Source: Promethearchaeum syntrophicum
GTDB taxonomy: Archaea; Asgardarchaeota; Lokiarchaeia; Sigyniarchaeales; Promethearchaeaceae
Direction: 5' to 3'
Assembly: GCF_008000775.2 (NCBI RefSeq)
Contig: NZ_CP042905.2
Coordinates: 3,625,723 to 3,649,722, forward strand
DNA length: 24,000 nucleotides
Below are positions 2-16,991 of the stretch, one piece after another. Position numbers and translations under genes: made by a program. Numbering within the stretch: position 1 is the first letter of the stretch; every line of letters starts with the position of its first letter. The notes under the pieces are model-generated. The model made no database searches. It worked only from the letters and a program-made list of their open reading frames with translations, and was not told the origin of the DNA.

Positions 2-796
2 ATAATTTGTCAAGTTTATAAGCATAATCTTCAAAAAGCCGAAGAATATTACAAAAAAGCCTATGATATCACCAAAAATAACCCAGATTTAGGTCTTCGA
101 GACATGATGATTTATAATATGGCTAATATCTACCAACATTATAAAGGGGATTATCTAATCGCTTACCCCTATTATAAAGAAGGGGCAGAAAATGCCCATA
201 AACAAAATAATCCCATTAGAGAAGCCTTTTTCGTGGATCATATGGCAATGAGTATGCATTGGCAGGAAAAATATGATGAAGCTCTAAAATTATTATACCA
301 ATCTCGAAAAATTGTTGCTCATGAAGCACGAGGTGATCACACACTTTATAATAGAATGTTGGAATCCTTAATTTTTCTTGAATTACATCAATTTTCCAAA
401 GCGTTACAAGGAATGTTGAGTGTTATTGACATTAAAATCATGAATAAAGACGGTTTTACTCACAACGATTATTTGTTATGTTTATCTGATATTGCACGAG
501 AATTACCGGCAGAATTTGAGAAATATCAAGAGAAATTAAAACCTATATTAGAAGATAGTTTTACAGAAGAAGAAATTATTGATAAAGCGGTTGCATTTGC
601 AGAAACTAATGGAAGAGCAGATATCGTAGGAAAATCATGCTTATATAAAGCCAAATGGTTATGGAAAAATGAACAACATGAGGATGCTAAGAAATTACTC
701 AAAAAAGGTTGGAAAATTATTCACGAAGATTATCGAGGTGAAATAGTTCAATTATACAATAAATTTATAAACCAAAATCAGATAATTTTAGATTAG
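2..796 (+). CDS. TPR-like helical-repeat protein, 5' end off the window
   Basis: The frame of the 104..796 ORF stays open back to base 2 (IICQVYKHNLQKAEEYYKKAYDITKNNPDLGLRD...), so the gene starts upstream of the window. Recurrent A/Y/L-rich helical pairs (AEEYYKKAYDI, YPYYKEGAENA, YDEALKLLYQS) resemble TPR repeats. Confidence 0.55.
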   Translation: MICQVYKHNLQKAEEYYKKAYDITKNNPDLGLRDMMIYNMANIYQHYKGDYLIAYPYYKEGAENAHKQNNPIREAFFVDHMAMSMHWQEKYDEALKLLYQSRKIVAHEARGDHTLYNRMLESLIFLELHQFSKALQGMLSVIDIKIMNKDGFTHNDYLLCLSDIARELPAEFEKYQEKLKPILEDSFTEEEIIDKAVAFAETNGRADIVGKSCLYKAKWLWKNEQHEDAKKLLKKGWKIIHEDYRGEIVQLYNKFINQNQIILD

Positions 797-841
797 ATTT
801 ACAGAATCATACAGCAATTAAAGAAAAAAAGAATTTCCAAC

Positions 842-1267
842 TTAAACTCGTGTGTTTTTGATTTCATAACCACAATGACTACAAAAATAAACGGACAAAT
901 TTTCTATATTTCTATCTATCTCACTTCCACATTGTAGACAGTATTTCTGATTTCTTCGTATTGTGGTTGGTTTTGGTTCTGAAGGAGATTGTGCCCTTCT
1001 TTGTACGTAATGTTGTGTTCTCCCCCTAGATCGAGCCCTAGAAGCCGAAGAAATTGCCCCTATCACACTTATCATAATTATTACCAAATATATCATAGGA
1101 AAACTAAAAACACTCGACCTACCAATGAAGAAGAATATTCCGAGAAAGAATAATATACTCGTTATAGAAGATATAATCAAAAAATTTCTTTGCCTTGGTT
1201 GAGAATTTCCATCATTTTCATTTTCTTCCTGATTTTGGGAAGCTATAATCGGTGTCATCCATGCCAT
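842..1267 (-). CDS. small membrane protein with a C-terminal zinc ribbon
   Basis: 141 aa. The N-terminus MAWMTPIIASQNQEE matches the N-termini of the two large paralogs. Two hydrophobic helices follow (FLIISSITSILFFLGIFFFIG, FPMIYLVIIMISVIGAISSA), then an Arg-rich linker and CLQC-x15-CSHC (CxxC...CxxC). Met4 (1258) is an alternative start. Confidence 0.6.
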   Translation of the reverse strand: MAWMTPIIASQNQEENENDGNSQPRQRNFLIISSITSILFFLGIFFFIGRSSVFSFPMIYLVIIMISVIGAISSASRARSRGRTQHYVQRRAQSPSEPKPTTIRRNQKYCLQCGSEIDRNIENLSVYFCSHCGYEIKNTRV

Positions 1268-1325
1268 TATAATTTAAATAAGCGAATTTAGGAATAAAAA
1301 AAAAATCCATAATATTCTAGTACTA

Positions 1326-1354
1326 CCATATGCAACCATATGAAAGGTCCATAT
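1326..1354. promoter_or_regulatory. phased CCATATG repeat array in the divergent promoter region
   Basis: CCATATG at 1326-1332 and 1336-1342 (10-bp spacing), with a degenerate CCATAT at 1349-1354. The array lies between the divergent 842..1267(-) and 1387..2073(+) genes. In minus sense it sits just upstream of AATATTAT, about 49 nt before the ATG. Confidence 0.5.
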
Positions 1355-1386
1355 TAAAAATTAAATAAGAATTCAAATGAACTTAA

Positions 1387-2073
1387 GTGATAACGATGAA
1401 CTTAGGATTTGTAAGATTTAAAAGGAAAAAATACAGGGTAAAACGTGCTAATGATTTTATTACCGGTAAAAAGAGTAGATTTCTAACAATAACTAATAAA
1501 AAAATCGAAGATATTTCTGAAATCGAAGGTTTAGATAAATTAACCGAACTCCAAGTGTTAAATTTAAGTAATAATAACATTTCCGAAATTCGTGGGCTGG
1601 ATTCATTGATAAATTTGCATTCACTGATACTAGATGATAACTCTATTCATCAATTAAAAGGATTAGAACATAATTACAAGCTAAAATATTTATCCATCAA
1701 TAAGAATAAATTAAGGGAAATTACTGGTCTTGAAAATCTAACCCAATTGCTTTATTTACAATTAATGGACAATGAAATTTCAGCGATCTCAGGGTTAGAG
1801 ACTTTGATTAATTTACAGGAATTATATTTGCGTAAAAATCATATTTCTAAAATCAGAGGCTTAGAAAAAGTAAGGTCACTCAAAAAATTAAATTTAGAGA
1901 AAAATCAAATTCAAGATCTTGAGGGATTAGAGAATTTGGAAAATCTATTTTGGATTTTTTTGGGAAAAAATCCGGTTTTTAAAGAAGTAAAGAAGATTAG
2001 TAGAACATTTTTGGGATATGCTAAATATCCCCAACGACTTGTGAAATACTGTAAAGACAATCTTCAAAATTGA
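1387..2073 (+). CDS. leucine-rich repeat protein, SDS22-like 22-residue repeats
   Basis: About 7 tandem 22-aa units of the form LxxLxxLxLxxNxIxxIxGLExL (for example LTELQVLNLSNNNISEIRGLDS, LINLQELYLRKNHISKIRGLEK). The track start is GTG at 1387; the first ATG is at 1396. Confidence 0.85.
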   Translation: MITMNLGFVRFKRKKYRVKRANDFITGKKSRFLTITNKKIEDISEIEGLDKLTELQVLNLSNNNISEIRGLDSLINLHSLILDDNSIHQLKGLEHNYKLKYLSINKNKLREITGLENLTQLLYLQLMDNEISAISGLETLINLQELYLRKNHISKIRGLEKVRSLKKLNLEKNQIQDLEGLENLENLFWIFLGKNPVFKEVKKISRTFLGYAKYPQRLVKYCKDNLQN

Positions 2074-2092
2074 AACTGAGAATAATTGAAAG

Positions 2093-2120
2093 ATCCCATA
2101 ATTCTTTGGGATTTTCTTTA
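2093..2120 (+). terminator. hairpin plus T-rich tract downstream of the LRR gene
   Basis: ATCCCA (2093-2098) pairs with TGGGAT (2107-2112) and is followed by TTTTCTTT, 20 nt after the LRR stop codon. Confidence 0.35.
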
Positions 2121-2316
2121 CTACTTTCTTCCAGAACTCACAATATTTCTTTTTCGAAATTCATGTTCACTAATTTCACCTTAGTGGAAATAAAATCTAT
2201 CAAAATCCGAACGATTTTAAATCCCATAAAATCCACGAGAATACACATATTCTTATTCATAAATGAGAGTATATCCTTGAATCAACCATATATTATCAAA
2301 ATATAAGCCAAAAGTG

Positions 2317-2342
2317 AAAAAATAACCGATATATTCTCGGTT
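2317..2342 (-). terminator. hairpin plus T6 tract downstream of paralog A
   Basis: In gene sense: AACCGA gaatata TCGGTT A TTTTTT. Stem arms are at 2324-2329 and 2337-2342; the A6 run on the plus strand is at 2317-2322. It lies about 70-95 nt after the stop at 2411. Confidence 0.45.
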
Positions 2343-2410
2343 AGTGGTCATCTGAACCTAAATGTTGATGACCATAACATTGGGTTGATTACTTTTATTT
2401 GAAAAAAATA

Positions 2411-3940
2411 TTATTCTTCGACTAAATTTTTCTTTTTGTTTCTATATTCTCTAAACCACGGAATTGCTAATGTGATGGATGTCAAGATCCCCATAAAAAC
2501 AAGATAAAATTGTTGAAATAGTATGTATTTATTAAATTCACCAAAATACATATCTGGGATATTTTCATAAGTCCAATTGCTCAGTACTCTAATTAATATA
2601 TTTGGAATGAATACAAATACATTTAGAAGCAGTGCTCCCAAATAAATATTTTTCTTGAATTTGTGTTCTATGAAAAGCAATCCGAAATTAATGATTCCAA
2701 GTATTATTATTGAGATCGTATAAAATGACCACCCATACATCCAAGACGGAATAATTCCAATTAACTCAATAAAATATATCATTTTGAGATAATTGTCATC
2801 GTTACTCAGTTCTTCTTTTAAATTACTTGAATTTATGAACAATTGAATCAAAGCCATAACTTGGAACATAATAAACACTATCCCACTAAAACTAAAAAGG
2901 ATAGTAAGTTCTGCCCACCTGAAAGGAAAATAAAAAACAAAATCAGATATAGCAAATAAGCTTCCCGAAATAAATATTCCATAGAGAATTAATGGTAAAT
3001 TAATTTTAATTTTGGATGCATTTCTATATTTTACAACGATGACACCAATCACTGCACTTAATATGGTAATAATTAGAAATTGTGTGATAAAACTATAACC
3101 AACAAAAACGGACACAAAATTTCCTACAGTAAAATAGAAAGTGAAGAATAAAAGATTCAATTGATCTTTTTTAGATCCCGAAAGAAGGGAAACTCCAATT
3201 CCCAAACAACTGACTATGAATATCACCAAAAATAAAGCTTGAGGACTTTCTACAATTTTTGTCCCGAGATCAGTTTCTCTCCAATAAGTAAAAGAGAGGA
3301 TTCCCAGAAAACAAAGATATTGAATACCAAATAAAATTACATTTTTACCTTTCTCTTGATCACGGGGTTTAAGGGACAGCCAAATAGAAATTATTGCAAT
3401 AATGATGCTAATTGATAACAGAACATAAAAAATAATTTCGAAGGTATGATTGTATCCCCAAAGAATTCCTACAAGATGTGAAGTGAAAATTAGAATGATA
3501 TCCAGAATTATTATTAGGATAGAAAAAATCATTGAAAACTTAATCTCCTTTCCAGCAACCGAGATGCGATATAAACTTGGTTCGGAGGATTTTTCACTTG
3601 TATCTTCCGCATTCATTCCTGATTTAATTTGAATATTTTTTTGTTCCTTTTTATTTATTCCAATGAGAAACACTATAAGAATTAAAATCAGGGTGACTGC
3701 CATTATAAAAGGAATAAAATCAGCTTGGAAAAAATCAGAGAAAAAATTTGAAATTATTCCCGAAATTGAATCAATTCCCATTGTACTTCCTAAATTATTC
3801 AATTTTACTGTAAGGTATGCAAAAAAAACATAGGGAATAAATATCATCAATAAAAATTGTAAATTTTTCTTAAATTGGATTCTATTTTTTCCTTTTTCTT
3901 CCTGAGTTTGGGAAGCCAGTATGGGTGCTTTCGACGCCAT
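2411..3940 (-). CDS. polytopic membrane protein of unknown family, paralog A
   Basis: Long ORF with more than 12 hydrophobic segments and no motif I recognise. The track start at 3964 is a TTG. ATG at 3940 (MASKAPILASQTQEE...) is preferred because it aligns with the start of the 842..1267 protein and lies about 46 nt after an AATATAAA element. Confidence 0.8.
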   Translation of the reverse strand: MASKAPILASQTQEEKGKNRIQFKKNLQFLLMIFIPYVFFAYLTVKLNNLGSTMGIDSISGIISNFFSDFFQADFIPFIMAVTLILILIVFLIGINKKEQKNIQIKSGMNAEDTSEKSSEPSLYRISVAGKEIKFSMIFSILIIILDIILIFTSHLVGILWGYNHTFEIIFYVLLSISIIIAIISIWLSLKPRDQEKGKNVILFGIQYLCFLGILSFTYWRETDLGTKIVESPQALFLVIFIVSCLGIGVSLLSGSKKDQLNLLFFTFYFTVGNFVSVFVGYSFITQFLIITILSAVIGVIVVKYRNASKIKINLPLILYGIFISGSLFAISDFVFYFPFRWAELTILFSFSGIVFIMFQVMALIQLFINSSNLKEELSNDDNYLKMIYFIELIGIIPSWMYGWSFYTISIIILGIINFGLLFIEHKFKKNIYLGALLLNVFVFIPNILIRVLSNWTYENIPDMYFGEFNKYILFQQFYLVFMGILTSITLAIPWFREYRNKKKNLVEE

Positions 3941-3986
3941 AAATGTATTAAATGAAAACGACAATATAGTTAGATCCCTTTATATT

Positions 3987-4022
3987 CATATGACACCATA
4001 TGATACCATATGATGCCTTATG
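3987..4022. promoter_or_regulatory. four CATATG-type repeats at exact 10-bp spacing upstream of paralog A
   Basis: CATATG at 3987, 3997 and 4007, and CTTATG at 4017. In gene sense the array directly abuts AATATAAA (complement of about 3978-3985). Confidence 0.55.
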
Positions 4023-4140
4023 ATTTTTCATTGATTTTTTCAATTTTATTTTTATGAAATTCCTTCTTGGTTTTTTCTGCTAAATGGGGGGAGAATAAAT
4101 GGTAAAGCTATCCAATAGAATGGAATAAGACACAGTTCAA
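4017..4140 (-). pseudogene. decayed copy of the MFS transporter 3' end
   Basis: Aligns with 5979-6101, the true C-terminal codons of the MFS gene. An extra G in the G-run at 4086-4091 (GGGGGG, versus GGGGG in the functional copy) shifts the frame, and nothing homologous lies upstream. Confidence 0.75.
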
Positions 4141-4215
4141 CAAGCAAAGAAGATTAGCAGAATCTTCATGGGATTTCCTAAATATCCTTAAAGACTTGTG
4201 AAATATTGTAGAACC
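4141..4215 (+). pseudogene. decayed copy of the LRR gene 3' end
   Basis: Aligns with about 1983-2058 (AKKISRIFMGFPKYP*RLVKYC versus VKKISRTFLGYAKYPQRLVKYC). CAA has become TAA, giving an in-frame stop. It starts exactly where MFS homology ends, which marks the duplication junction. Confidence 0.7.
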
Positions 4216-4279
4216 AAAGCACATTATGAATGAATGTGGTTAAATCAACAAGAAATTATCATCCCATAAGCAAAAAGTG

Positions 4280-4303
4280 AAAAAAAACCGAGTTATTCTC
4301 GGT
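4280..4303 (-). terminator. hairpin plus T8 tract downstream of paralog B
   Basis: ACCGAG (4287-4292) pairs with CTCGGT (4298-4303). In gene sense the hairpin is followed by T8 (plus-strand A-run 4280-4287). It is the positional homolog of 2317-2342. Confidence 0.45.
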
Positions 4304-4374
4304 CAGTGGTCATCTGGACCTCAAAGCAGATGATCATAGCATCGGGTTAATTACTTCTATCTGTAAAAAAAATA

Positions 4375-5901
4375 TTATTCTTCGACTAGATTTTTCTTTT
4401 TGTTTCTATATTCTTTAAACCACGGAATTGCTAATGTGATGGATGTCAAAATCCCCATAATAACAATATAAAATGGTTGATATTCTACGTATTCGTATCC
4501 ACTAAGGTCACTTTCATAGATCCAATTGCTCAATAATATAATTAATATATTTGTAATGAATACAATTAAATTAAGAAGCAACGCTCCCAAATTAATATTT
4601 TTCTTGAATTTATGTTCCGTGAAAAGTAATCCGAAATTAAGGATTCCGAGTATTATTATTGAGATCGTATAAATTGACCACCCTTCCATCCAAGACGGAA
4701 AAATTCCAATTAACTCAATAAAATATAACATTTTAAGATAATTGTCATCGTTACTCAGTTCTTCTTTTAAATTACTTGAATTTATGAACAATTGAATCAA
4801 AGCCATAGCTTGGAACACAATAAACACAATCCCAATAAAAATAAAATGGATGGTAAGTTCTGCACTCCTGAAAGAACTTCCTAAAATAAATTCATAGATA
4901 GCAAAAGAGCTTCCCGAAATAATTAATCCATAGAGAATTAGCGGTAAATTAATTTTAATTTTGGAATTATTTTTATACTTAATAACAATGAAACCAATCA
5001 CTGCACTTAATATGCTAAAAATTAGAAATTGTTTAATATACAGTAAACCGGCATTATATCCAAAAACGGACACAAAATTTCCTACTGTAAAATAGAAACT
5101 GAAGAATAAAATATTCAATTGATCTTTCTTAGATCCCGAAAGAAGGGAAACTCCAATTCCCAGACAACTGACTACAAATATCACCAAAAATAATAATTGA
5201 GGACTTTCTACTATTTTTATTCCATTACCGAAACCAGTTTCACTCCAATAAGTTAAAGAGAGAATTACCAGAAAACAAAGATATTGAATTCCAAATAAAA
5301 TTAAATTTTTACCTTTCTCTTGCTCACGGGGTTTAAGAGAGAGCCAAATAGAAATTATTGCAATAATGATGCTAATTGATAGCAGAATATAAAAAATAAT
5401 TTCGGAAGTTTGATTATATCCCCAAAGAATTCCTACAAGATGTGCAGTGAACATTAGAATGATATCCAGAATCAATATTATTATAGAAAAAATCAGCGAA
5501 AACTTAATCTCCTTTCCAGCAACCGAGATGCGATATAAAATTGGTTCGGCGGATTTTTCACTTGTTTCTTCCGCCTTCATTCCCGATTTAAATTGATTTT
5601 TTTTATGTTCCTTTTTACTTATTACAATGATAAACGCTATAAGAATTAAAATCATGGTGACTGCAATTATATAAGGAAGGAAATCAGCTTGGAAAATATC
5701 AGAGAAAAATCTTGAAATAATTTCCCAAAATGAATCAACTCCCAGTCTATATCCTATATATTTCAATTTTAATGAGAAGTATGCTAGAAAAACATAGGGA
5801 ATAAATATCATCAAAAAAATGTGTAAATTGTTCTTAAATTGAATTTTTGTTTCATTTTCTTCCGAAGTGTGGGAAGCCAGTATGGGTGCTTTCGACGCCA
5901 T
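4375..5901 (-). CDS. polytopic membrane protein of unknown family, paralog B
   Basis: Collinear with paralog A; roughly three quarters of residues look identical by eye, and differences cluster in predicted loops. ATG at 5901 (MASKAPILASHTSEE...) is preferred over the track's TTG at 5925. Confidence 0.8.
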   Translation of the reverse strand: MASKAPILASHTSEENETKIQFKNNLHIFLMIFIPYVFLAYFSLKLKYIGYRLGVDSFWEIISRFFSDIFQADFLPYIIAVTMILILIAFIIVISKKEHKKNQFKSGMKAEETSEKSAEPILYRISVAGKEIKFSLIFSIIILILDIILMFTAHLVGILWGYNQTSEIIFYILLSISIIIAIISIWLSLKPREQEKGKNLILFGIQYLCFLVILSLTYWSETGFGNGIKIVESPQLLFLVIFVVSCLGIGVSLLSGSKKDQLNILFFSFYFTVGNFVSVFGYNAGLLYIKQFLIFSILSAVIGFIVIKYKNNSKIKINLPLILYGLIISGSSFAIYEFILGSSFRSAELTIHFIFIGIVFIVFQAMALIQLFINSSNLKEELSNDDNYLKMLYFIELIGIFPSWMEGWSIYTISIIILGILNFGLLFTEHKFKKNINLGALLLNLIVFITNILIILLSNWIYESDLSGYEYVEYQPFYIVIMGILTSITLAIPWFKEYRNKKKNLVEE

Positions 5902-5947
5902 AAATGTGATAAACGAAAACGACAATATAGTTAGATCCCTTCATATT

Positions 5948-5983
5948 CATATGATACCATATGTCACCATATGATGCCTTATG
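5948..5983. promoter_or_regulatory. four CATATG-type repeats at exact 10-bp spacing upstream of paralog B
   Basis: CATATG at 5948, 5958 and 5968, and CTTATG at 5978. The last unit overlaps the MFS stop codon (5979-5981). Confidence 0.55.
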
Positions 5984-7328
5984 ATTTTTCATTTGTTTTT
6001 TCTATTTTATCATTATGAAGTTCTTTCTTGGTTTTTTCTGCTAAATGGGGGAGAATAAAGGTTACAGCAATCCAATAGAAAGGGATTAGACATAACTCAA
6101 CATATATAGAAATCAGGAAGGGTGCTGTGGGATCAATTTTATCCCATGCTAAGCCGCCAAAAAGAGGTCCAGCAATATTACCAATATTAATGAATAATTT
6201 TTGAAGACCAAAGATTTTTCCTCTATTATTTATAGAAATCCTGCTAAGTAGATTTTGCACTGAGAGCCCAGCAACGGATGCAATAGTAGTATCTAGAGTC
6301 CACAGAATAGCAATCATTACTAATGAGTCTGTATTAAGGAAGAAATACGTAGTAATAGCCCCAAATACACTTGAAATTGTGATTGCTAATGCAGGATTAA
6401 ACCTATCAACAAAACTTCCAATTTTTGGAGCAAGAGTAAATGAAATAATACCACCGGGGAGATAAGCAAATAAGAGTGCATTTGGATTATTCGAAATATT
6501 GTCTAAAATATAGATTTGAATAAAGGGTTGAGCGATCGACCCATTTAAACTCGCTAAGAATAGAACAATTAATAGAAATACGAACCCTAAAATTAAAAAT
6601 TTTGATTGTGAATTTCCATTCTTTTGGAACAATTCCTCAGTGAATGAATCTGAATTTAGATTGTCTTTCCTAAATTTTATAGATTCATCAACATTTCGGA
6701 CAAATTGAGTACCGGCATACATATTTCCTAATCCAAAAAGAATCATTGGAGAGAAAAGCAAAAAGACTGGCCAATTTAGTCCAGTTCCAAATCCAAAAAG
6801 TGTAAACCCAATAAAGGATCCGATCATTACACCTTTTCCCATTTCCTGGTCTCGCTTACCGAAGGCATAACTCCTATTTTCTCTGTTTGATTTTTCTGAA
6901 ATCAGAGTGTCAAAGGGAATCCAAAAAAAACCAACCCCAAAACCTAGTGAAAATGTCCCTACACTAAGTAAAGTTAATGATTGTGCTAAGGTGGCTATGT
7001 AAATGATAAAATATGAGATTCCTCTACCCCAAGACCCAACTAATATTAATTTAGTTTTTGAGAATTTTGAATTATCAGTTAAGATCCCAACAAATAGAGA
7101 AGAAAACATATATCCAAATATTTGTACTGAAGCCAAAAATCCAATTTGAAATCCCGTTGCTGTTAATGTTTCGTTAGCAATATAAGGAACAAGAAATGTA
7201 ATATAGAACAGTCCTAAACTATTATAAAACACTATTTTTATCATTGAGTTAAAATCTTCAGTAGTTTTTGGAAGCGCCTTTCTGTCAGCTGTTGTTATTT
7301 CGTCTATAATTTTGGGTATATCGGTCAT
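5979..7328 (-). CDS. MFS-type transporter
   Basis: 449 aa, about 12 hydrophobic segments split 6+6 by a polar central loop (RNVDESIKFRKDNLNSDSFTEELFQKNGNSQSK). A motif-A-like stretch GILTDNSKFSKTK follows TM2. Confidence 0.65.
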   Translation of the reverse strand: MTDIPKIIDEITTADRKALPKTTEDFNSMIKIVFYNSLGLFYITFLVPYIANETLTATGFQIGFLASVQIFGYMFSSLFVGILTDNSKFSKTKLILVGSWGRGISYFIIYIATLAQSLTLLSVGTFSLGFGVGFFWIPFDTLISEKSNRENRSYAFGKRDQEMGKGVMIGSFIGFTLFGFGTGLNWPVFLLFSPMILFGLGNMYAGTQFVRNVDESIKFRKDNLNSDSFTEELFQKNGNSQSKFLILGFVFLLIVLFLASLNGSIAQPFIQIYILDNISNNPNALLFAYLPGGIISFTLAPKIGSFVDRFNPALAITISSVFGAITTYFFLNTDSLVMIAILWTLDTTIASVAGLSVQNLLSRISINNRGKIFGLQKLFINIGNIAGPLFGGLAWDKIDPTAPFLISIYVELCLIPFYWIAVTFILPHLAEKTKKELHNDKIEKTNEKS

Positions 7329-7418: not shown

Positions 7419-8078
7419 TCAAATTAAGAAAGTACAATCTTTAGCATAGAAAAGCAATAATCCACTTTTAAATTTCACTTTTATTGACCCATTTGCTACA
7501 TTACTCAAAGTCAAAGTTGATGAGAGTTCTACAGTTTTATTCTTTAAATCATAATTACTTCCTGTTATTGATACACCAGTGCATTTACTAAATGGGATTA
7601 AAGAAAAAATCGTGTTTGGTTTTAATTCTATGATTGATTCAGAATCAGATTCTAACGCCCATAAAACACCATTAGGGGTTAAAATTTTAATGAAAATTGG
7701 TTTTTTAAATAATAACAATGCATTAAATAGAAAATGATCAAGCCGCGCACCGCTGCTGTTTAGAATTATCATTTCTTGGAATTTTCTTTTCAATGCGAAA
7801 TCAATGGCTAATTCAGTATCAGATTTATCCTTATCACTTTTAAATCTTAAAATTTTATCATTAGAATATTTTTTTAAAATATCGGGCTCAACCGAATCAA
7901 AATCTCCAATTATTTTTGAGATTGGGATTTTAAGTTTATCGCAAATCTCAAGACCCTTATCGATTGCGTAAATCGTGTCTTTTCTCACATCAATTATGTT
8001 TTCTTTAACGAATTTCAAATATTCATAGTTAATTTCTGGTGAACCACTAATTAAGAAAGCTCTTGGATATGATTTCAT
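7419..8078 (-). CDS. thiamine pyrophosphokinase (EC 2.7.6.2, THI80/YloS family)
   Basis: Family signatures appear in order: IGDFDS, KDKSDTELAIDFAL (KDxTDxElA), GARLDH (GgRxDH), then a C-terminal thiamine-binding half with FSLIPF and STLTLSNV. Confidence 0.85.
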   Translation of the reverse strand: MKSYPRAFLISGSPEINYEYLKFVKENIIDVRKDTIYAIDKGLEICDKLKIPISKIIGDFDSVEPDILKKYSNDKILRFKSDKDKSDTELAIDFALKRKFQEMIILNSSGARLDHFLFNALLLFKKPIFIKILTPNGVLWALESDSESIIELKPNTIFSLIPFSKCTGVSITGSNYDLKNKTVELSSTLTLSNVANGSIKVKFKSGLLLFYAKDCTFLI

Positions 8079-8142
8079 CGAATAAAGAAAAAATGAAAAC
8101 CATTTAAAATATCTTATTTTTTAAATCTAATGTGAAAAAAAT

Positions 8143-8529
8143 ATGGAAACAACTAAATCAGTTCTTAGTTCACTCGTGAGTCTGCTTCGAACATATGGTC
8201 ACAGATTGCTTGCAGAATTAACGGATGAAGAAATACATTGGGTACCTTCTCAAACCAGAGGACGTTCCATTTATAGTTATTTCCTCCATTTGATCAATTC
8301 AGAATACTATTGGTTCAAGGATTTTGGTTTTTCAACCCCAGAATACCTTGGGAAAGATGCACCTTTTGACGAGCTTTTGCAGAGTTATAATGATCTGGAG
8401 AACTATCTGATCGAAACGATTCATAATATACCAGATGATCAATTTTTTTTACCTACTAAATTTTTGGAAATTAGTATTTTTAGGAAAAACTATAACATCT
8501 ATTTTTTATTTTATGAAATTGTTACTTAA
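8143..8529 (+). CDS. DinB/YfiT-like helical-bundle protein, possibly degraded at the C-terminus
   Basis: The N-terminal part (LAELTDEEIHWVPSQTRGRSIYSYFLHLINSEYYW) resembles DinB-family helices with His ligands. After a T8 run at 8443-8450 the last 35 aa are low-complexity and lack the usual C-terminal His pair. Confidence 0.4.
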   Translation: METTKSVLSSLVSLLRTYGHRLLAELTDEEIHWVPSQTRGRSIYSYFLHLINSEYYWFKDFGFSTPEYLGKDAPFDELLQSYNDLENYLIETIHNIPDDQFFLPTKFLEISIFRKNYNIYFLFYEIVT

Positions 8530-8546
8530 AGCAAACAAACTTGAAG

Positions 8547-8571
8547 GAAAACTCTTCGGGATGAGTTTTTC
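8547..8571 (+). terminator. hairpin plus T tract after the DinB-like gene
   Basis: GAAAACTC (8547-8554) pairs with GAGTTTT(T)C (8563-8571) around an 8-nt loop, with the T-run at the 3' side, 18 nt after the stop. Confidence 0.45.
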
Positions 8572-8636
8572 GATTTTAAATTAAACTCGAAAGCCATTTA
8601 TAGCATCTCTTTTTTTTATTCACATGTGGAAACACA

Positions 8637-9845
8637 ATGAAAAAAAATTATACTTTTTTATCGATTTTACTATTACTTCTAGTGGTAAGTTCACAGATTT
8701 CAGTAAAAAGTGAAGAAATTCAGAGTGAGACGAAACTAACGATATATACTTATGATTCCCTTCTAGATGATCCTGGTTACGATTTTATAGGAGCGTTTGC
8801 AAATCATTCTGGGATATTGAAGGAAGAAATTAATCTTGTGCTCTTATCAGATGCCAACCAAATTGTAACACAAATGGCGTTGGAAAAGGATAGCCCCGTT
8901 GCAGATGTAGCAATAGGTATTGATAATGTTCTTATCCATAGTGCAAAAAGAGATAATTTGTTAACGCCTTATATCTCCCCTGAATTAGCAAATATATCCT
9001 CAGATTTGATAGATAACCTCGATTCTGAAAAATTTGTTCTACCCTATGATTTTGGTATAATAGCTTTATATTATGATATGAATCGAATAAATTCAACTAC
9101 AAATCCAGAGATTACGAATATAACTTTAGAGGAAATTATTGAGTTCGATTTGGATAAAAAACTAATTGTTGAAGATCCAACTCTGAGTTCACCAGGATTA
9201 GGTTTTCTTCTATGGACGATTGCAATTTATGGTGATCCTACAATTAATTTCAACGGAACCTTAGGTTTAGATTGGCGTGATTGGTGGAAAACAACAAAGG
9301 ATGATTTGAGGATTGCCCCAAGTTGGACCGCAGCTTTTGGGGAATGGTATGAGGGGGAAGAAAATCGCCCAATTATGGTTTCATATGGAACAAGTCCAGC
9401 ATATAGTGCTTGTCAATATAATGATACATCTCAAGGCGCCTTTTTATCTCATGAAAATGGAACGCAAAACGGATGGTTACAAATCGAAGGAATTGGGCTC
9501 GTGAATAACGCCCCTCATGAAGATCTTGCCAAGAATTTTATAGATTGGTTCTTAAGTAAAGAACTCCAAGACAACATTGCGGAAAATAATTGGATGTATC
9601 CCGCAAATGATTACGCTGAAATCTCAACTAGGTTTAATGAATCATCAATTAATCCCGATGATGTTAACATTTTAAATTCACTAATATCTTCGGAAACAAT
9701 AGGAACAAATCTCGAGATGTGGAAGGGAGATTGGGAAACCATTATAAGTTCAGACCTTAACATTAGCGGATATAGTTCAATTTTCTTCATTTTTGCTTCA
9801 ATAGGAGCAATAGCGTATATACAAAAGAAAATAAAGAGAAATTAG
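8637..9845 (+). CDS. thiB: thiamine ABC transporter substrate-binding protein (ThiB/TbpA family), membrane-anchored
   Basis: Blocks shared with E. coli ThiB as recalled from memory: LTIYTYDSL, ADVAIGIDNVL, LPYDFGIIALYYD, DPTLSSPGLGFLLW, MVSYGTSPAY, NNWMYPAN. There is an N-terminal signal-like segment and a C-terminal hydrophobic helix followed by KKIKRN. Confidence 0.85.
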   Translation: MKKNYTFLSILLLLLVVSSQISVKSEEIQSETKLTIYTYDSLLDDPGYDFIGAFANHSGILKEEINLVLLSDANQIVTQMALEKDSPVADVAIGIDNVLIHSAKRDNLLTPYISPELANISSDLIDNLDSEKFVLPYDFGIIALYYDMNRINSTTNPEITNITLEEIIEFDLDKKLIVEDPTLSSPGLGFLLWTIAIYGDPTINFNGTLGLDWRDWWKTTKDDLRIAPSWTAAFGEWYEGEENRPIMVSYGTSPAYSACQYNDTSQGAFLSHENGTQNGWLQIEGIGLVNNAPHEDLAKNFIDWFLSKELQDNIAENNWMYPANDYAEISTRFNESSINPDDVNILNSLISSETIGTNLEMWKGDWETIISSDLNISGYSSIFFIFASIGAIAYIQKKIKRN

Positions 9846-9886
9846 AAAAATCGAAAATAAGAAAATCTAAAGGTTAAAATTAATAC

Positions 9887-11629
9887 ATGAAAAATTCAAA
9901 GCCGAATTCGAAAATTAAGACTGAAGGCTTATTAAATAAGCTGATTGTAGGGATAGTTATTACAGCCTTAATTTCTTTTTTACTCACTTTTTTTTATTTA
10001 CCAATTGTTAAAATCTTAAATTTTGCGTTAATTCAAGAGGGTTCATTCACATTCGATATTTTTTGGTCGACTCTCACTTCTTCATTAAATCTTAATGCTA
10101 TTGCCTTTACTTTTATTCAATCACTACTTACGACATTTATTTGTATGTTTTTAGGATTTCCAGTCTCATTTTTTTTAGCTAAATATTCCTTTAAAGGGAG
10201 AAAATTGATAATAAATCTATTAACTGTTCCGTTTGTGTTACCATCAATTGTAGTTTTACTCGGTTTTATAATTTTATACGGTGAAGGAGGTTTTATCAAC
10301 CAAATTTGGATAAATATTGCTGGAGTGCCTTTAATCAATTTGTACGGAAGTATTGAAGGCATTGTACTTGCTCATTCCTTTTATAATATTTCAGTAATAA
10401 TCCGAATGATGATCCCAGCTTGGGAAAATCTTGATCCGAATTTAACTGAAATTTCCAAGACACTTGGAGGAAAAAACTGGATGATATTCTGGAAAATTAT
10501 GTTTCCCCAAATCAAAAACTACCTGATCTCAGCCGGTTTGTTGGTATTTACCTACACTTTCAACAGCTTTGCTCTTGTCTTGTATCTTGGTGAAGTAAAA
10601 TTCCAAACCTTGGAAGTAAGAATTTTTAAACTGATGAGGAATACTTTAGATTTTCCTGCAGGGGCATCTTTAGGAATTTTACAACTGTTTTTTAATTTAA
10701 TCATAATAATTCTCTATATAATTTTTGAAAAGAAAACTAGGGCCATGGCTTCTGGAAAAGATAACATATATCACCATGAAAAAATTGTTTTTTTAAAATC
10801 AAACTGGAAAAAAACTTTAGGAGAAATAATCCTCATAATTTTTACAATTCTCATAATTCTTTTCTCAATTTCACCTATGATTGCAGTTTTCATTACTTCT
10901 CTTACTCCGAATACCTTAGGTGGTTCTCCATTTTGGGGATATACAAGTTTATTATCAAATGATTATGATACTCTACTTGGAGCACCTCCTTCAAGATTAC
11001 TTCTAAATACATTAACATTTGCCTTTCTAACCACATTAATTACTTTGATTTTCTCAATCGGAATTGTTTTTATACTCAGAAATCGCTTGCAGCGCGTAAA
11101 TAATTATAAAAAATCAGTTATTGAAAACATAATATCACTAGCAATTATTCTACCAATGGGTACTTCATCGATTACATTAGCAATGGGGTTATTTCTTCAA
11201 CTGAAAGATAGTGCCGTTTTTAAAAATTATGTGTGGATATTAATTGTTCTCGCTCATGTTTTAATTAGCGTCCCCTTTGCAACGAGATCTATTTTATCAG
11301 CCTACAATCGAATTGATACTGATTTGCTTAATATTGCTTCTACGTTGGGGGCATCCAGATTAAGAATATTTTGGAAGGTAGAATTGCCCATGATAAAATC
11401 AGGGTTAATAGTTGCAGGAATTTTTTCATTTGCTATAAGTCTTGGTGAGTTTGGTGCCACCAATTTCTTAGCTCGGGCAGAATACGGGACATTATCATTA
11501 GGAATTTCAAAATTATTATCTTCACGAACAATGCAACTCCCGGCTTCAATGGCTAGCATTTTAATCATCGTAACTTTTATTTGCTTTTTTTTAATTCAAA
11601 AAACAGGAGAAAAAGATTTGAAATTTTAA
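9887..11629 (+). CDS. thiP: thiamine ABC transporter permease, two fused transmembrane domains (ThiP type)
   Basis: 580 aa with two EAA-loop-like segments (LTEISKTLGGKNWMIFWKIMFPQIK and LLNIASTLGASRLRIFWKVELPMIKSG), each inside a 6-TM half. It lies directly downstream of thiB. Confidence 0.8.
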   Translation: MKNSKPNSKIKTEGLLNKLIVGIVITALISFLLTFFYLPIVKILNFALIQEGSFTFDIFWSTLTSSLNLNAIAFTFIQSLLTTFICMFLGFPVSFFLAKYSFKGRKLIINLLTVPFVLPSIVVLLGFIILYGEGGFINQIWINIAGVPLINLYGSIEGIVLAHSFYNISVIIRMMIPAWENLDPNLTEISKTLGGKNWMIFWKIMFPQIKNYLISAGLLVFTYTFNSFALVLYLGEVKFQTLEVRIFKLMRNTLDFPAGASLGILQLFFNLIIIILYIIFEKKTRAMASGKDNIYHHEKIVFLKSNWKKTLGEIILIIFTILIILFSISPMIAVFITSLTPNTLGGSPFWGYTSLLSNDYDTLLGAPPSRLLLNTLTFAFLTTLITLIFSIGIVFILRNRLQRVNNYKKSVIENIISLAIILPMGTSSITLAMGLFLQLKDSAVFKNYVWILIVLAHVLISVPFATRSILSAYNRIDTDLLNIASTLGASRLRIFWKVELPMIKSGLIVAGIFSFAISLGEFGATNFLARAEYGTLSLGISKLLSSRTMQLPASMASILIIVTFICFFLIQKTGEKDLKF

Positions 11630-11660
11630 AATTCAAATTATCACAGAATGTGTTGCTAAC

Positions 11661-12764
11661 ATGACCTACTTAAAACTTCAGAATATTCACATGAAATACC
11701 AAAATGAATTGATAATTAATGATCTTAATTTAAATGTTGAACGCGGAGAACTTTTAATCCTATTAGGCTCAAGTGGATGTGGAAAAACAACATTACTCAA
11801 AATTATTGCAGGTTTAATTCACCCTGAACAAGGTTTAATTATGATTGAAGATCAAGATATTACAAATTTTTCTCCACAAAAAAGAGAAATTGGTTATGTC
11901 CCTCAGTCCCAAGTTCTATTTCCCCACCTAAACATCAAGGAAAATATTGCATTTGGACTTCGCGCTAGAAATAAAGAAAATTCTAAAGAAGAAATTGAGC
12001 AAAAAATCCAAGAAGTTGCTAAATTAGCTCAAATCGAAGATATTTTATCTCGTTTTCCAAGTGAAATTAGTGGAGGGCAAAAACAGCGAGTTGCCCTAGC
12101 TAGAGCTATAGTTATAAATCCAAGATTACTTTTACTTGATGAACCCTTATCAAGTATTGATGCAAACGGTCGCGAATCCTTAGCATTAATGATAAAACGA
12201 ATCCAAAGAGAAACAAAAACAACTACAATTTATGTCACACACAATCAACAAGAAGCTCGTTTGATTGCTGATAAAGTTGCTATAATGTATGATGGGATAA
12301 TACAACAATCAGGAACCATGACAGATATCGATATCCATCCGATGAATTTCCAGATCGCTAACATAATTGGAAAACTCAATATTTGGAAAGTATATTCGCA
12401 AAAATTTGAACAAGGACAGCTAATTATTTCGAGTCCTCTCGGTGATATAACAATTGCTTCTAAAGAAGAGAAAAAAATAGCAGGAATTCAAATTCACCCC
12501 AGTAAAATCAAAATAGCTAATGAAAATGAAAACTTCGACATGAAATTCTCAGAGCAGATTTTAGTAATTAAAGGGAAAATAATCTCCATTATTCAATTAA
12601 AAAGTAAAATATTTCAAATAATTATCCAAATCAATGAAAATCAATTAACTAAGCCATTTATCTACATCAAAATGCAATTGCTGGATCAAAATTTAATTAA
12701 AAATCTAACAATTAACCAAGATATTAAACTTAAAATAGATCCAAAGGATATAATTCTTTTTTGA
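11661..12764 (+). CDS. thiQ: ABC transporter ATP-binding protein with a C-terminal beta-rich extension
   Basis: Walker A GSSGCGKTT, Q-loop VPQS, signature SGGQKQRVALARA, Walker B LLLLDEP, H-loop VTHNQ. About 130 extra C-terminal residues resemble a TOBE-like regulatory domain, as in PotA/FbpC-type ATPases. The thiQ name rests on operon context only. Confidence 0.8.
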   Translation: MTYLKLQNIHMKYQNELIINDLNLNVERGELLILLGSSGCGKTTLLKIIAGLIHPEQGLIMIEDQDITNFSPQKREIGYVPQSQVLFPHLNIKENIAFGLRARNKENSKEEIEQKIQEVAKLAQIEDILSRFPSEISGGQKQRVALARAIVINPRLLLLDEPLSSIDANGRESLALMIKRIQRETKTTTIYVTHNQQEARLIADKVAIMYDGIIQQSGTMTDIDIHPMNFQIANIIGKLNIWKVYSQKFEQGQLIISSPLGDITIASKEEKKIAGIQIHPSKIKIANENENFDMKFSEQILVIKGKIISIIQLKSKIFQIIIQINENQLTKPFIYIKMQLLDQNLIKNLTINQDIKLKIDPKDIILF

Positions 12765-12807
12765 TTTTTATCTACTTCAGAGTTATTGTGAAACAAATCC
12801 AAAGATA

Positions 12808-13539
12808 CTAAATTGCTAAATTCTTGAGTCTTTGTTGAAGATCTTCTAAAAACGGTTTATAATAATCCTGAGTTTCAGATAATTTTTCTATTTGAAGTAA
12901 CGATCTATCGTAAGCCCATTTTACTTTATCTAAAAGACCCATTTCCTCGTAATTTAAACCCAAGTAATAAAATGCCAATGGATAATTAAAGTCGATTTTG
13001 ACAAGTTTCATTAATTGTTGTATCGCCTGTCCATGTTTCTTCAGTTTATAAAATGCATAGGCCAAAAAAAATAGAATTTTTGGATATCGGGGGTCCCTAT
13101 TAGCAAATTTGTAGATGTCAATCATATCCCAAAGTAAATTGAGCGCCTCCGTATATTTCTCCACGGAAATTAATTTTTCCATACGTTCAAATTTCTCCAA
13201 ATACTCTGGATCTTCTTCTTGGGATGCTTGTTTCAATTTTTCTTTTTTTGCTTGGAGTTCCTGCTCTCGTTTCTCCGCTTCTTTACGATCTTTTTCCAGT
13301 TGCTCCAAATATTCATTAAATACATTAATAACGTGGGTATCGTACTCCTCAAAACATAAAGGGCACTTTGTACTATGAGAAATCCACTTTTTTAAACACT
13401 CATAATGAACTAAGTGCCCATTCGGGCAACCAACAAAATTTTTTGTAACATGTTCCCTTCCAAAATGTGATAAATCAATCGGTCCATGGCAAATGCAGCA
13501 TTGCATAACTTTGGCATTGGAAGTATCAAGTTTACCCAT
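12808..13539 (-). CDS. RING-H2 zinc finger protein with coiled-coil and TPR-like C-terminal region
   Basis: C14-x2-C17-x20-C38-x3-H42-x2-H45-x2-C48-x10-C59-x2-C62 fits the RING-H2 spacing exactly. The HYECLKKWISHSTKCPLC stretch mirrors the canonical HxxCIxxWLxxxxxCPLC signature. An E/K-rich heptad region follows, then 2-3 TPR-like helical pairs. Confidence 0.8.
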   Translation of the reverse strand: MGKLDTSNAKVMQCCICHGPIDLSHFGREHVTKNFVGCPNGHLVHYECLKKWISHSTKCPLCFEEYDTHVINVFNEYLEQLEKDRKEAEKREQELQAKKEKLKQASQEEDPEYLEKFERMEKLISVEKYTEALNLLWDMIDIYKFANRDPRYPKILFFLAYAFYKLKKHGQAIQQLMKLVKIDFNYPLAFYYLGLNYEEMGLLDKVKWAYDRSLLQIEKLSETQDYYKPFLEDLQQRLKNLAI

Positions 13540-13631
13540 TTTCTTATAATTTTATAATGGAACGGTTGGAAAAAAAGAAATCGAAATCTTATTTCATCCC
13601 TGAAATCATAAAATTTTTTTGTTAAAACACG

Positions 13632-13641
13632 TTTATTTAAA
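13632..13641 (+). promoter_or_regulatory. TATA-like box for the tRNA gene
   Basis: TTTATTTAAA is centred about 27 nt upstream of the predicted tRNA 5' end. Confidence 0.4.
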
Positions 13642-13662
13642 TCACTTAAGGAATTTTATGAA

Positions 13663-13760
13663 AGGTCCGTCGTCTAGCCTGGATATGGCGCTGGGTTGCG
13701 ATCCATAACGTAATTGTGGCAAACACCCAGTTTTCGAGGGTTCAACTCCCCCCGGACCTA
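13663..13760 (+). tRNA. tRNA-Arg(GCG) with a 23-nt intron at the canonical 37/38 position
   Basis: Hand fold. Acceptor AGGTCCG/CGGACCT (7 bp). D arm GTCT-AGCCTGGATA-TGGC. Anticodon stem CTGGG/CCCAG. Loop TT-GCG-A, then the intron (13702-13724), then A. T arm GAGGG-TTCAACT-CCCCC with one A:C mismatch. Discriminator A; no encoded CCA. TTGC (13696-99) pairs with GCAA (13719-22), flanked by two 3-nt bulges that hold both splice sites, which is a BHB motif. A T5 run follows at 13772-13776. The segment is a GC-rich island in AT-rich DNA. Confidence 0.8.
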
Positions 13761-13846
13761 CTAACTCCTTCTTTTTGGATTTTGAGAGTATAAATCTAAA
13801 AAAATTTCTTGAAGAGGACTCACCTACCTATGGGGCGATTTTTTCT

Positions 13847-14950
13847 TTAATATGATTCCACGAAAAAGACATCCACATTATGATCTGTCATAAAAACGTA
13901 TACATCACCAGAAAGGATTTCAATCGCATCTGAATTCTTCTTAAGGTGCGCGTCCATGTGTAAGAGACCAAGTCCTTGTAAATATGCATGCCCTTCTTCA
14001 GCAGAACACAATATATCAAACGAAGGCATTTTTTCTTTAATTTTCTTTGACAAGGGAACATCTCCAAAAAATATTTCTGGGTGCTGTTTGATTAGATTAT
14101 GAGTCGATTCTGCTTCCTTGCAGAAGTGCAAATGATCAGCATTATTAAGAACTACCATTAATTTGGGTTCTAATGTGCGTTTAAACATGTCATAGATCGA
14201 TCTTACATCTACTAATGTATCATTCTGTGCTGCCAGGTATAGTGTTGCAATAGTGTGCTTCCAATCTAAGTTTAGGATATCGGAAAGCGGATTTGATTCT
14301 TTTAAGTCAGGAGAATTACCACCTATTGAAGCAATAGGAAGAGCTGCAGAAATTCTTGAATCACTAGATGCTACCATAAGAATGGTCCATCCTCCATAGC
14401 TGTACCCGGCCACGCCTATACTATTAACATCAATCATCTTTAATGGGATTTTTACCTTCTCAGATGTCATACAATCTATAATGAATTTGATATCACTGGG
14501 GCGGTTCATGAAAATCTGTCTACTGAGTTCTGCTGTATTTGGAGGCATTCCTTTCTGAGTATGTTCTCTGTAGGTTAATAAATCCAGATATGTATTACCT
14601 AAATGATCGGGTGCAGCTACAATATAACCGTGACTGGCTAAGTGAGTACATAAGTGTGAAGTTAAACGTCGATGAGCGCCATGTCCATGGGAAAAAACAA
14701 TTAATGGATAAAATCCCTCGCGAATGTCTGCATCTCTAACCGCATTTTGAGATAAGGAGATGTCTCCTATTTGATATTTATCTTTCGTAGCTTCCTCAAA
14801 ATCTTTATTCTTAAATTCATCTGTTGCGGGGAACCAAATCTCTGTAGGGAGTGTTCGATTTCTCTTTGGATCATGAAAGTTTTGGGTTATTACACCAACG
14901 GGAAATGGTCCACGATTAAAAGGATTATATTTTGCTTGATCTGTGCTCAT
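13847..14950 (-). CDS. alpha/beta hydrolase (PAF-acetylhydrolase / lipase-like)
   Basis: Nucleophile elbow GYSYGG. Oxyanion-region LIVFSHGHGAHR resembles the PAF-AH/dienelactone-hydrolase-like group. Candidate Asp (AQNDTLVD) and His (NADHLHF) complete a Ser-Asp-His triad in the usual order. Confidence 0.7.
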   Translation of the reverse strand: MSTDQAKYNPFNRGPFPVGVITQNFHDPKRNRTLPTEIWFPATDEFKNKDFEEATKDKYQIGDISLSQNAVRDADIREGFYPLIVFSHGHGAHRRLTSHLCTHLASHGYIVAAPDHLGNTYLDLLTYREHTQKGMPPNTAELSRQIFMNRPSDIKFIIDCMTSEKVKIPLKMIDVNSIGVAGYSYGGWTILMVASSDSRISAALPIASIGGNSPDLKESNPLSDILNLDWKHTIATLYLAAQNDTLVDVRSIYDMFKRTLEPKLMVVLNNADHLHFCKEAESTHNLIKQHPEIFFGDVPLSKKIKEKMPSFDILCSAEEGHAYLQGLGLLHMDAHLKKNSDAIEILSGDVYVFMTDHNVDVFFVESY

Positions 14951-15082
14951 TTTATCTACCTCTTTAAATAAAATTCTAAATTTATATTTGAATAGAGTTT
15001 TTTCTGAACAATAAAATTATTGTTGTTCAAAATATGACTTTAAAAGAATGAAAAATAAAAAAAAAAACTCTAAATTCATTAA

Positions 15083-15970
15083 TTATTCTAAATCCCATTT
15101 CAATAAGGATTTAACAAGATTACCATGACTAAGCTCGCCCCTGGACATAAATTTTGCAAAGCGATTTTCACCCTTCTTCCATAGGAGGGTTACAATCTTC
15201 TTCACCACATCCTCAGTTTTAATCACACCTTGACTCCTCAATTGATCCTTAAATTGATGGACATCTAAGTGTAACTTTTCGATTTCATCTATTTTTTCCT
15301 TAAGAAATGTACGGGGATAGACCTTGGCATGGGCTACAAAGATACGCAAATCATCCATACCCTCTGTTAACTCATATAATTTTTTTTGGGAAAAATAAAT
15401 CTCCTTAATATTCTCTTGAATATCTTTACAACCACCCCCAAAAAGCATCTCATACCGTTTCATAAGGGCATCCCCCACAAATAGAAGTTGATGCTCACGC
15501 TCGAGTAAAGCGGTTAGATCGGGTGAATGGCCTGGGGAGTTGATCAAATCAAAATTATATTTTCCTGATTTTGAGGAAATATGATCACTAATTGGTTGGG
15601 TTGAAATAGGGGGTAACAATTTTCTGCCCCAGTATATTTGGCGGTACAATCGGTAAGATTTGAGGGATTCAAACTGTTTCTGAGTAGAGGGAGAACAGAA
15701 GATTGGAATATTCATTCGTTCTTGAAGAATTTTGGCACCTCCGGCATGATCCTCATGGAAATGTGTAAGATATACTTGGTTAATGCGATCATTTTCGGGT
15801 AATTGCGATGCCCATTCATAAATATCCTCACTCCCTGCAGGTGCACCGGTATCTATTAATAAACCATCTAATTTGTAACTTGAAGTCCATTTTGGGATAG
15901 TGGCCAGCCAATGTTCGGATTTCCATTGCCATTCTAATATATCCCCATGCAATTTTGTACGAGTAATCAT
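15083..15970 (-). CDS. metallo-beta-lactamase-fold hydrolase
   Basis: THFHEDHAGG (HxHxDH motif), later His/Asp ligand candidates (SPGHSPD, VGDAL, VAHAK), 295 aa. Confidence 0.75.
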   Translation of the reverse strand: MITRTKLHGDILEWQWKSEHWLATIPKWTSSYKLDGLLIDTGAPAGSEDIYEWASQLPENDRINQVYLTHFHEDHAGGAKILQERMNIPIFCSPSTQKQFESLKSYRLYRQIYWGRKLLPPISTQPISDHISSKSGKYNFDLINSPGHSPDLTALLEREHQLLFVGDALMKRYEMLFGGGCKDIQENIKEIYFSQKKLYELTEGMDDLRIFVAHAKVYPRTFLKEKIDEIEKLHLDVHQFKDQLRSQGVIKTEDVVKKIVTLLWKKGENRFAKFMSRGELSHGNLVKSLLKWDLE

Positions 15971-16209
15971 TTTAAGTTATTCTCCTAATTAATCCAATTT
16001 AAATAAAACCTTTGCTATCTTGTCGACAGTTCGTAATCCAGAACTGTAATTCGGGTAAAAAATTTTCCTTATAGGATAAGGGTGTAAAAATTACTTTAAA
16101 AACTTTAATCTTTTTTGCATTTAAGATATTTGTAAGTCGTTTAACCCATTAATTTATAAGTTAAACCAATTTGGTGAGATAGAAAAAAAAATAAAAATAG
16201 ATATAAAAA

Positions 16210-16971: not shown

Positions 16972-16991
16972 TTTTTTTCACCTTTTAGAGC

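Follow-up and report, generated by a model that had tools for sequence, protein, structure and literature searches.

We consider it probable, though well short of certain, that a 23-nucleotide element recurring near the start of three genes of Promethearchaeum syntrophicum MK-D1 is peptide-coding sequence, that the 5′ end of a small zinc-ribbon gene containing it was captured by a gene for a multi-TM membrane protein in the MK-D1 lineage, and that the captured end then spread among paralogs. The window, that is, the whole stretch of DNA analyzed here, spans 24,000 nucleotides of this genome and has a G+C content of 30.8%. As we picture the history, the 23-mer would encode A-S-Q-N/T-Q-E-E-N, the core of a cytoplasmic peptide that is conserved at the N-terminus of a family of small zinc-ribbon proteins of Promethearchaeota and is a hallmark of that family. 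A fusion in the MK-D1 lineage would have joined the 5′ end of a zinc-ribbon gene, in frame, to an unrelated gene for a polytopic membrane protein of ~495 amino acids. With it would have come an array of CATATGG units phased at 10 bp, a TATA-like box, a short leader sequence, and the opening ~14 codons. The recipient's own start (M-E-K-E-K-K) would coincide with the E-E of the motif. A 2.16-kb tandem duplication would then have copied the chimeric 5′ end from paralog B to paralog A, and the same end would also have reached a third, distant paralog, DSAG12_02472. We infer that the peptide itself works as a short linear motif within a tail that is disordered and cytoplasmic, where it might, for example, bind a partner or direct turnover.

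The recurrence of the element, first reported in a preliminary description of this DNA, is real. The three copies lie on the plus strand at positions 1221-1243, 3894-3916, and 5855-5877 of the window, antisense to three minus-strand genes. Each copy covers codons 9-16 of its gene, and these codons read A-S-Q-N-Q-E-E-N in zinc-ribbon gene 1, A-S-Q-T-Q-E-E-K in paralog A, and A-S-H-T-S-E-E-N in paralog B. The translated N-termini are MAWMTPIIASQNQEEN for gene 1, MASKAPILASQTQEEK for paralog A, and MASKAPILASHTSEEN for paralog B. The inverted repeat CTTCC-N8-GGAAG occurs exactly three times in the 24 kb, each time at codons 9-15, and did not occur in any of 100 shuffles. Gene 1 and paralog A agree at 22 of 23 positions, as the preliminary description had it; the 20 of 23 that it gave for gene 1 and paralog B is really 19 of 23, because B is more than three mismatches away from gene 1. 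Paralogs A and B match at 20 of 23 positions, and their three differences are all in the loop. Indeed, every change among the three copies falls in the 8-nt loop and is nonsynonymous, and on this point the preliminary description was correct.

The native home of the peptide is the zinc-ribbon family. Gene 1 (842-1267, minus strand) encodes 141 amino acids: a disordered N-terminal tail with the motif is followed by two TM helices, a linker rich in Arg and Ser, and, at the C-terminus, a zinc ribbon. The match of gene 1 to a Pfam zinc ribbon is weak, and for the families of gene 1 and of the paralogs, searches of Pfam, NCBIfam, and PDB gave nothing informative beyond the zinc ribbon. All 20 homologues of gene 1 that we collected (~140 amino acids, down to 51% identity) keep the motif, with the consensus M-[AS]-[WYC]-x-x-P-I-[IFM]-A-S-Q-[NT]-Q-E-E-N. 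Within it, I7 and S10 are invariant; P6, A9, Q11, Q13, and E14 are each conserved in at least 90% of the homologues; and the choice of N or T at position 12 is a common polymorphism of the family. The conserved N-terminal peptide of the preliminary description is therefore kept across divergent homologues at the protein level.

Three further loci were confirmed in a metagenome search with the family profile. In addition, a profile search of 1.84 billion representatives recovered 35 relatives of the zinc-ribbon family; the paralog A family was absent from that search at E ≤ 0.001, a threshold at which motif-only matches are undetectable. The distant relatives begin MAWMAPIIANN, MAWTPIIATQQ, MAWIPAIAAAS, or MAWMIPIVAAS, and one of them is named as a Promethearchaeota MAG. 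They keep MAW(M/I)xPI(I/V)A without SQNQEE. The MAW starts that they share point to the N-terminal half of the motif as an old hallmark of the zinc-ribbon family, and the SQNQEE half, the source of most of the hairpin arm sequence, is specific to one clade. In the AF2 model of gene 1, which is weak (mean pLDDT 59.5), residues 1-3 and 6-21 have a pLDDT below 50, TM helices span residues 22-49 and 56-77, and a small beta ribbon lies at the C-terminus. The model is consistent with a motif that sits in a disordered or exposed tail ahead of the first TM helix, and by the positive-inside rule both termini of the protein would be cytoplasmic.

Zinc-ribbon genes are also found in tandem pairs, 5 nt apart (TAATTATAATGGCATGG), at L022 (1538-2415) and L041 (411-1294). 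The second genes of these pairs, L022b and L041b, have the motif and lack an array of their own, and they are therefore presumably co-transcribed. The sequence around the start codon in the tandem pairs, AATTATA directly followed by ATGGCATGG, is highly conserved.

The two other genes with the 23-mer belong to a different family. Paralog A (2411-3940, minus strand) is 100% identical to DSAG12_03871 and encodes a polytopic membrane protein of 509 amino acids that belongs to no known family; its residues 1-14 correspond to the captured motif. Paralog B (4375-5901, minus strand) is DSAG12_03872, has 508 amino acids, and lies directly downstream of an MFS gene. The multi-TM family has eight members, including a third MK-D1 copy, DSAG12_02472, which starts MASKTPIMASRNQEEK. 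All three MK-D1 paralogs carry the motif, whereas none of the five relatives from other Promethearchaeum-like genomes or metagenomes does so (L001, L002, L029, L030, and L033; 55-77% identity). These five proteins start M(E/D)(K/Q)(E/D)KK(I/L)Q(F/Y)KKNLQ, which is the very point where the MK-D1 proteins continue after Q-E-E. The DNA upstream of their five starts contains neither the motif nor CATATG arrays, and in L001 an in-frame TGA lies five codons upstream of the ATG.

An NJ tree of the multi-TM family, calculated with the N-terminus left out, places DSAG12_02472 as sister to the motif-less P0008 (97% bootstrap) and groups paralog B with the motif-less P0002 (83.5%). Since the derived "MASK" start is nonetheless common to all three MK-D1 paralogs, the motif follows the genome and not the gene tree. 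Parsimony favors one capture with later spread among the paralogs over at least three independent losses, each of which would have had to recreate the same start codon. Paralog A retains the zinc-ribbon family consensus at the 23-mer, and paralog B has drifted from it (Q11H and Q13S).

A related arrangement is seen at L002 (1881-2085) and L029 (1-170), where a multi-TM gene with the start MEKEKK is immediately preceded by a remnant of the zinc-ribbon family. The promoter and array of this remnant are nearly identical to those of gene 1; its coding part, an ORF of 38 amino acids, has lost PIIASQNQEE and ends after the first TM helix. A rearrangement like the one proposed for MK-D1 may have ended differently here.

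The locus itself tells us which family was the donor. The C-terminus of the MFS protein in the window (ending in ...AEKTKKELHNDKIEKTNEKS before the stop) is orthologous to that in L035 (ending in ...AEKTKKEIQNKKNLEKINEKS before the stop). Downstream of it, L035 has a zinc-ribbon gene and the window has paralog B. Similarly, a zinc-ribbon gene follows the MFS gene in L022 and L041. This synteny identifies the zinc-ribbon family as the donor. The regions upstream of A and B align collinearly with those upstream of zinc-ribbon genes over the whole stretch of array, TATA-like box, and leader up to the ATG, with 61-68% identity to L035, L034, and L040. Paralogs A and B themselves derive from a tandem duplication of ~2.16 kb (window 1979-6111). 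Their gene bodies are 88-92% identical, and a comparison of A with B gives a uniform identity of ~88%, with no peak at the 5′ end. At the duplication junction (4058-4217), a remnant of the MFS 3′ end stands beside a remnant of the 3′ end of an LRR gene: positions 4058-4151 are 70% identical to 6018-6111 (MFS 3′ end), and positions 4136-4217 are 79% identical to 1979-2060 (LRR gene).

The CATATG arrays of the preliminary description also proved to be real. The window has 13 CATATG sites, and eight of them fall in three arrays with a 10-bp period, which lie 47-60 nt upstream of the three start codons. The array of gene 1 (1327-1342, minus strand) consists of two exact CATATGGT units 10 bp apart, with a degenerate AATATG further upstream. 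That of paralog A (3987-4012, minus strand) has three copies of CATATGGT with a 10-bp period and the TATA-like AATATAAAG directly after them, and that of paralog B (5948-5973, minus strand) also has three copies of CATATGGT and begins just past the MFS stop codon. The general unit is (A/C)ATATGG(T/C), with the palindromic core CATATG, an exact spacing of 10 bp, and an abutting TATA-like box. Every zinc-ribbon gene with a promoter of its own has an array upstream, as do A and B; elsewhere in ~90 kb of related DNA there is a single array-like match. Such a distribution suggests a putative operator for one transcription factor that would co-regulate both families. From the position of the TATA-like box, ~30 nt ahead of the ATG, a very short leader is predicted; in the literature we found no promoter or TSS study for Promethearchaeum syntrophicum.

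Arrays of this type are not confined to archaeal DNA. The IMG/VR contigs L045-L051, which represent unrelated phages with 47-64% G+C, contain 3-4 copies of CATATGGTCA or GTCATATG at an exact 10-bp spacing, and the L045 array (TGTCATATGGTGTCATATGGTGTCATATGATGTCATATAAG) is close in sequence to that of paralog A. The array type found in both phages and MK-D1 may be a recurrent operator or iteron. With such arrays also present in high-GC contigs of unrelated phages, a regulator family cannot be named from the sequence by itself. A separate observation concerns the leader of A and B (window 3945-3975, minus strand), which holds TATTGTCGTTTT, the reverse complement of AAAACGACAATA. The latter lies upstream in L001 (1345-1360), and close variants are found in L030 (420-436) and L033 (845-860). 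We considered whether this 12-nt inverted match with a motif-less homologue might be an inverted fragment of the native upstream region and set this reading aside; the match is probably due to chance in AT-rich DNA, since the leader of A and B aligns with zinc-ribbon leaders at 19 of 23 positions.

Here, we must return to the nucleotide-level constraint that the preliminary description read into the element, with a 5′-proximal mRNA hairpin as one possibility. On this reading the hairpin (CUUCC, an 8-nt loop, and GGAAG; ORF +26 to +43) would be selected for tuning translation or mRNA stability, over and above the peptide code. We regard this as unlikely. Our sample comprised 14 DNA instances (the three in the window and eleven from nine loci), which are few, related, and nonindependent, and the stem examined was alignment columns 26-30 with 39-43. 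Pairing is kept in 95.7% of the stem cells, but none of the five pairs changed on both sides and the covariation score equals the shuffled mean. The three broken cells are uncompensated: C.A, from CAG to CAA, in L038 and L041a, which represent two different subclades, and U.C, from GAA to GAC, in L040. There are also two G.U wobbles, TCT (from TCC) in L022b and ATT in L038. Folded alone, the 23-mer reaches -5.5 kcal/mol with a z of -2.4 to -2.8 (~-2.6), but the first 60 nt of the three ORFs (z of +0.87, -0.35, and -0.79) are no more stable than their shuffles, and the stem is just 5 bp around a loop of 8 nt. No Rfam 15 match was obtained at E ≤ 1 for window 700-6200, and distant members of the family retain the N-terminal half of the peptide without the arm region. 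The codons in the arms are part of the case for a hairpin. The closing C-G pair is formed by TCC, kept in 13 of 14 instances, and by CAG, kept at 10 of 12 Gln positions; the G before GAAG is kept in 12 of 14, even through changes of Q to R (CGG) and Q to S (TCG). In paralog B the loop has diverged nonsynonymously around intact arms, and the probability that all A/B differences in the 23-mer would fall in the loop is ~0.03 (hypergeometric). The TCC codon, which had been called atypical, is indeed non-preferred but is not rare, at 12.8% of the Ser codons of the window genes; CAG, at 17% of the Gln codons, is likewise non-preferred. Against this, the synonymous arm sites change at ordinary rates. 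Among zinc-ribbon genes TCC changed in 1 of 12 sequences and CAG in 2 of 11, within the range of comparable sites (1-3 changes per 10-12 sequences at other Gln codons, and 1-5 different codons per site at 4-fold sites), and other non-preferred codons are kept equally well (AGG in 10/12 and 9/9, GGC in 8/11, TGC in 8/11). Synonymous divergence is lower in motif codons 9-16 than in the rest of the gene (0.06 versus 0.27; Mann-Whitney p = 0.006). We read this as weak residual evidence because six of the eight motif codons are preferred ones (GCT, CAA, AAT, GAA, GAA, and AAT), and preferred codons are often invariant elsewhere in the gene. The complementarity of CTTCC and GGAAG arises from the codons GCT-TCC ... 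(CA)G-GAA-G, and the uncompensated arm changes, together with ordinary synonymous drift, speak against a constraint at the nucleotide level; the preliminary description had itself named these two signs as what would reduce the element to a peptide motif.

The same inverted repeat could instead act as DNA, either as an operator in the early coding region, where a dimeric regulator would block the polymerase, or as a second site beside the arrays. In favor of such a site, each of the three window genes has a perfect 5+5 repeat, equally far from its start codon and always together with arrays, but the TCT, CAA, and GAC variants break its symmetry, and in ~90 kb of related DNA TTCC-N8-GGAA occurs elsewhere at three apparently random places and never in a promoter. 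Moreover, L022b and L041b carry the motif without an array of their own, and the peptide fully explains the conservation; we give the operator very little credence. A recent conversion within the MK-D1 genome that involved gene 1 and paralog A, an alternative along the lines raised in the preliminary description, seems to us just as improbable. It would account for the fact that gene 1 is closer to A in the 23-mer than A is to B, and the way the motif is distributed does imply that the multi-TM paralogs have exchanged 5′ ends to some extent. However, gene 1 and A share only 15 of 24 nt just 5′ of the element (codons 1-8) and 55% of the upstream region, and flanks of only 55-62% identity lead us to exclude, with high probability, a recent conversion between them. 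Orthologues in other genomes have also kept the 21-23-mer. In its 21-nt core, A shows 100% identity to the zinc-ribbon gene of L034, which comes from a different genome, and 95% identity to four others. Lastly, the alternation of T and N at position 12 is common within the zinc-ribbon family, and the uniform identity of A and B shows no local 5′ peak. As part of the capture and spread that we favor, the identity of gene 1 and A at 22 of 23 positions would probably reflect purifying selection on the peptide core in both families, combined with the codon bias of the genome.

What can be retained of the "portable promoter-plus-N-terminus cassette" of the preliminary description is that the peptide and the array promoter form one 5′ unit, common to two unrelated families, probably through a lineage-specific capture; the hairpin part is not supported. 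One can imagine a stronger version, in which the array promoter and the 14-codon tag are a module moved between membrane-protein genes, bringing them under one regulator and giving them a common cytoplasmic handle for sorting, turnover, or docking to the zinc-ribbon proteins, and in which the stem closed by C-G may add a post-transcriptional layer. We are doubtful of this. The tag was seen on two gene families, the zinc-ribbon and the multi-TM proteins. Genome contigs, in a collection without MK-D1, were scanned with the pattern CCNATNNTNGCTTCCN8GGAAGAA and gave 26 matches, of which 25 are in unrelated organisms (24 bacteria and one Thermoplasmatota MAG), which is about the chance expectation; the remaining match is in Promethearchaeum sp. 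CSMAG_2396. A viral scan for the 23-mer pattern returned only two chance matches, both internal to unrelated ORFs.

It is worthwhile to set these results beside systems that are already known. Promoter or 5′-end capture fusions, in which a recipient gains the promoter, leader, and first codons of a neighboring unrelated gene, are the closest parallel: here too, homologues without the extension exist, the donor family is identified, and the junction is in frame. Unlike such fusions, the captured coding part is just ~14 codons, and the tag is present on all three paralogs of one genome whatever their position in the tree, which argues for secondary spread. Deletion and microhomology in the GAA-rich junction are both candidates for the mechanism of capture. 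The peptide resembles short linear motifs in disordered N-terminal tails, such as sorting signals and degrons, in having a core of 8-16 residues (with P6, I7, S10, E14, and E15 taken as invariant), an acidic low-complexity sequence after that core, low predicted order, and a place before the first TM helix. Unlike the catalogued tail signals, the MK-D1 motif matches none of those tested, and the likeness is one of anatomy.

Similarly, the first 45 nt of the ORF allow one to draw a small stem-loop, as in 5′-coding mRNA hairpins that modulate translation initiation; unlike in those, covariation is absent, breaks go uncompensated, and stability in context does not exceed the background. The arrays, for their part, are comparable with phased operator or iteron-like arrays (dimeric regulators, archaeal TATA boxes) in having 2-3 copies, a 10-bp spacing, an abutting TATA-like box, and a position that is kept in orthologues. 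They differ in that the same type is present in phage contigs that are unrelated and high in GC.

If our account is correct, MK-D1, the first cultured Asgard archaeon, offers a clean and datable case of promoter-plus-N-terminus capture with subsequent spread among paralogs. The work also brings to light two undescribed features of this lineage, a conserved N-terminal peptide on small zinc-ribbon membrane proteins and a phased CATATGG array that resembles an operator. Were the tag to serve as a signal for sorting or turnover, it would have a bearing on the organization of the Asgard membrane proteome; as it stands, the finding is mainly one of ordinary gene evolution. It is important to remember that a short inverted repeat is no evidence of RNA structure when it lies in DNA that codes for a conserved peptide.

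Some minor observations may be added. Two further readings were discarded. CCCAAAA, considered as a frameshift site, stands in the wrong frame and lacks conservation, paralog A having CCCAAAC, and an internal Shine-Dalgarno sequence with ATG does not work because the ATGs after GGAAGAAA are out of frame. On a larger scale, window 7419-17800 is syntenic with positions 1-9714 of L039, a "Prometheoarchaeum_2" contig; the shared order runs L7Ae-S12-S7 ... RING/TPR protein, ABC transporter, solute-binding protein, DinB, and thiamin pyrophosphokinase. In L039 a zinc-ribbon gene comes right after the kinase, and in MK-D1 the MFS gene, B, A, and the LRR gene are inserted between the two. Within this syntenic block, ribosomal protein S7 (16210-16971, minus strand) has 253 amino acids, its Pfam S7 domain (76-253) being preceded by an N-terminal extension of ~75 residues, and its orthologue in L039 is of equal length.
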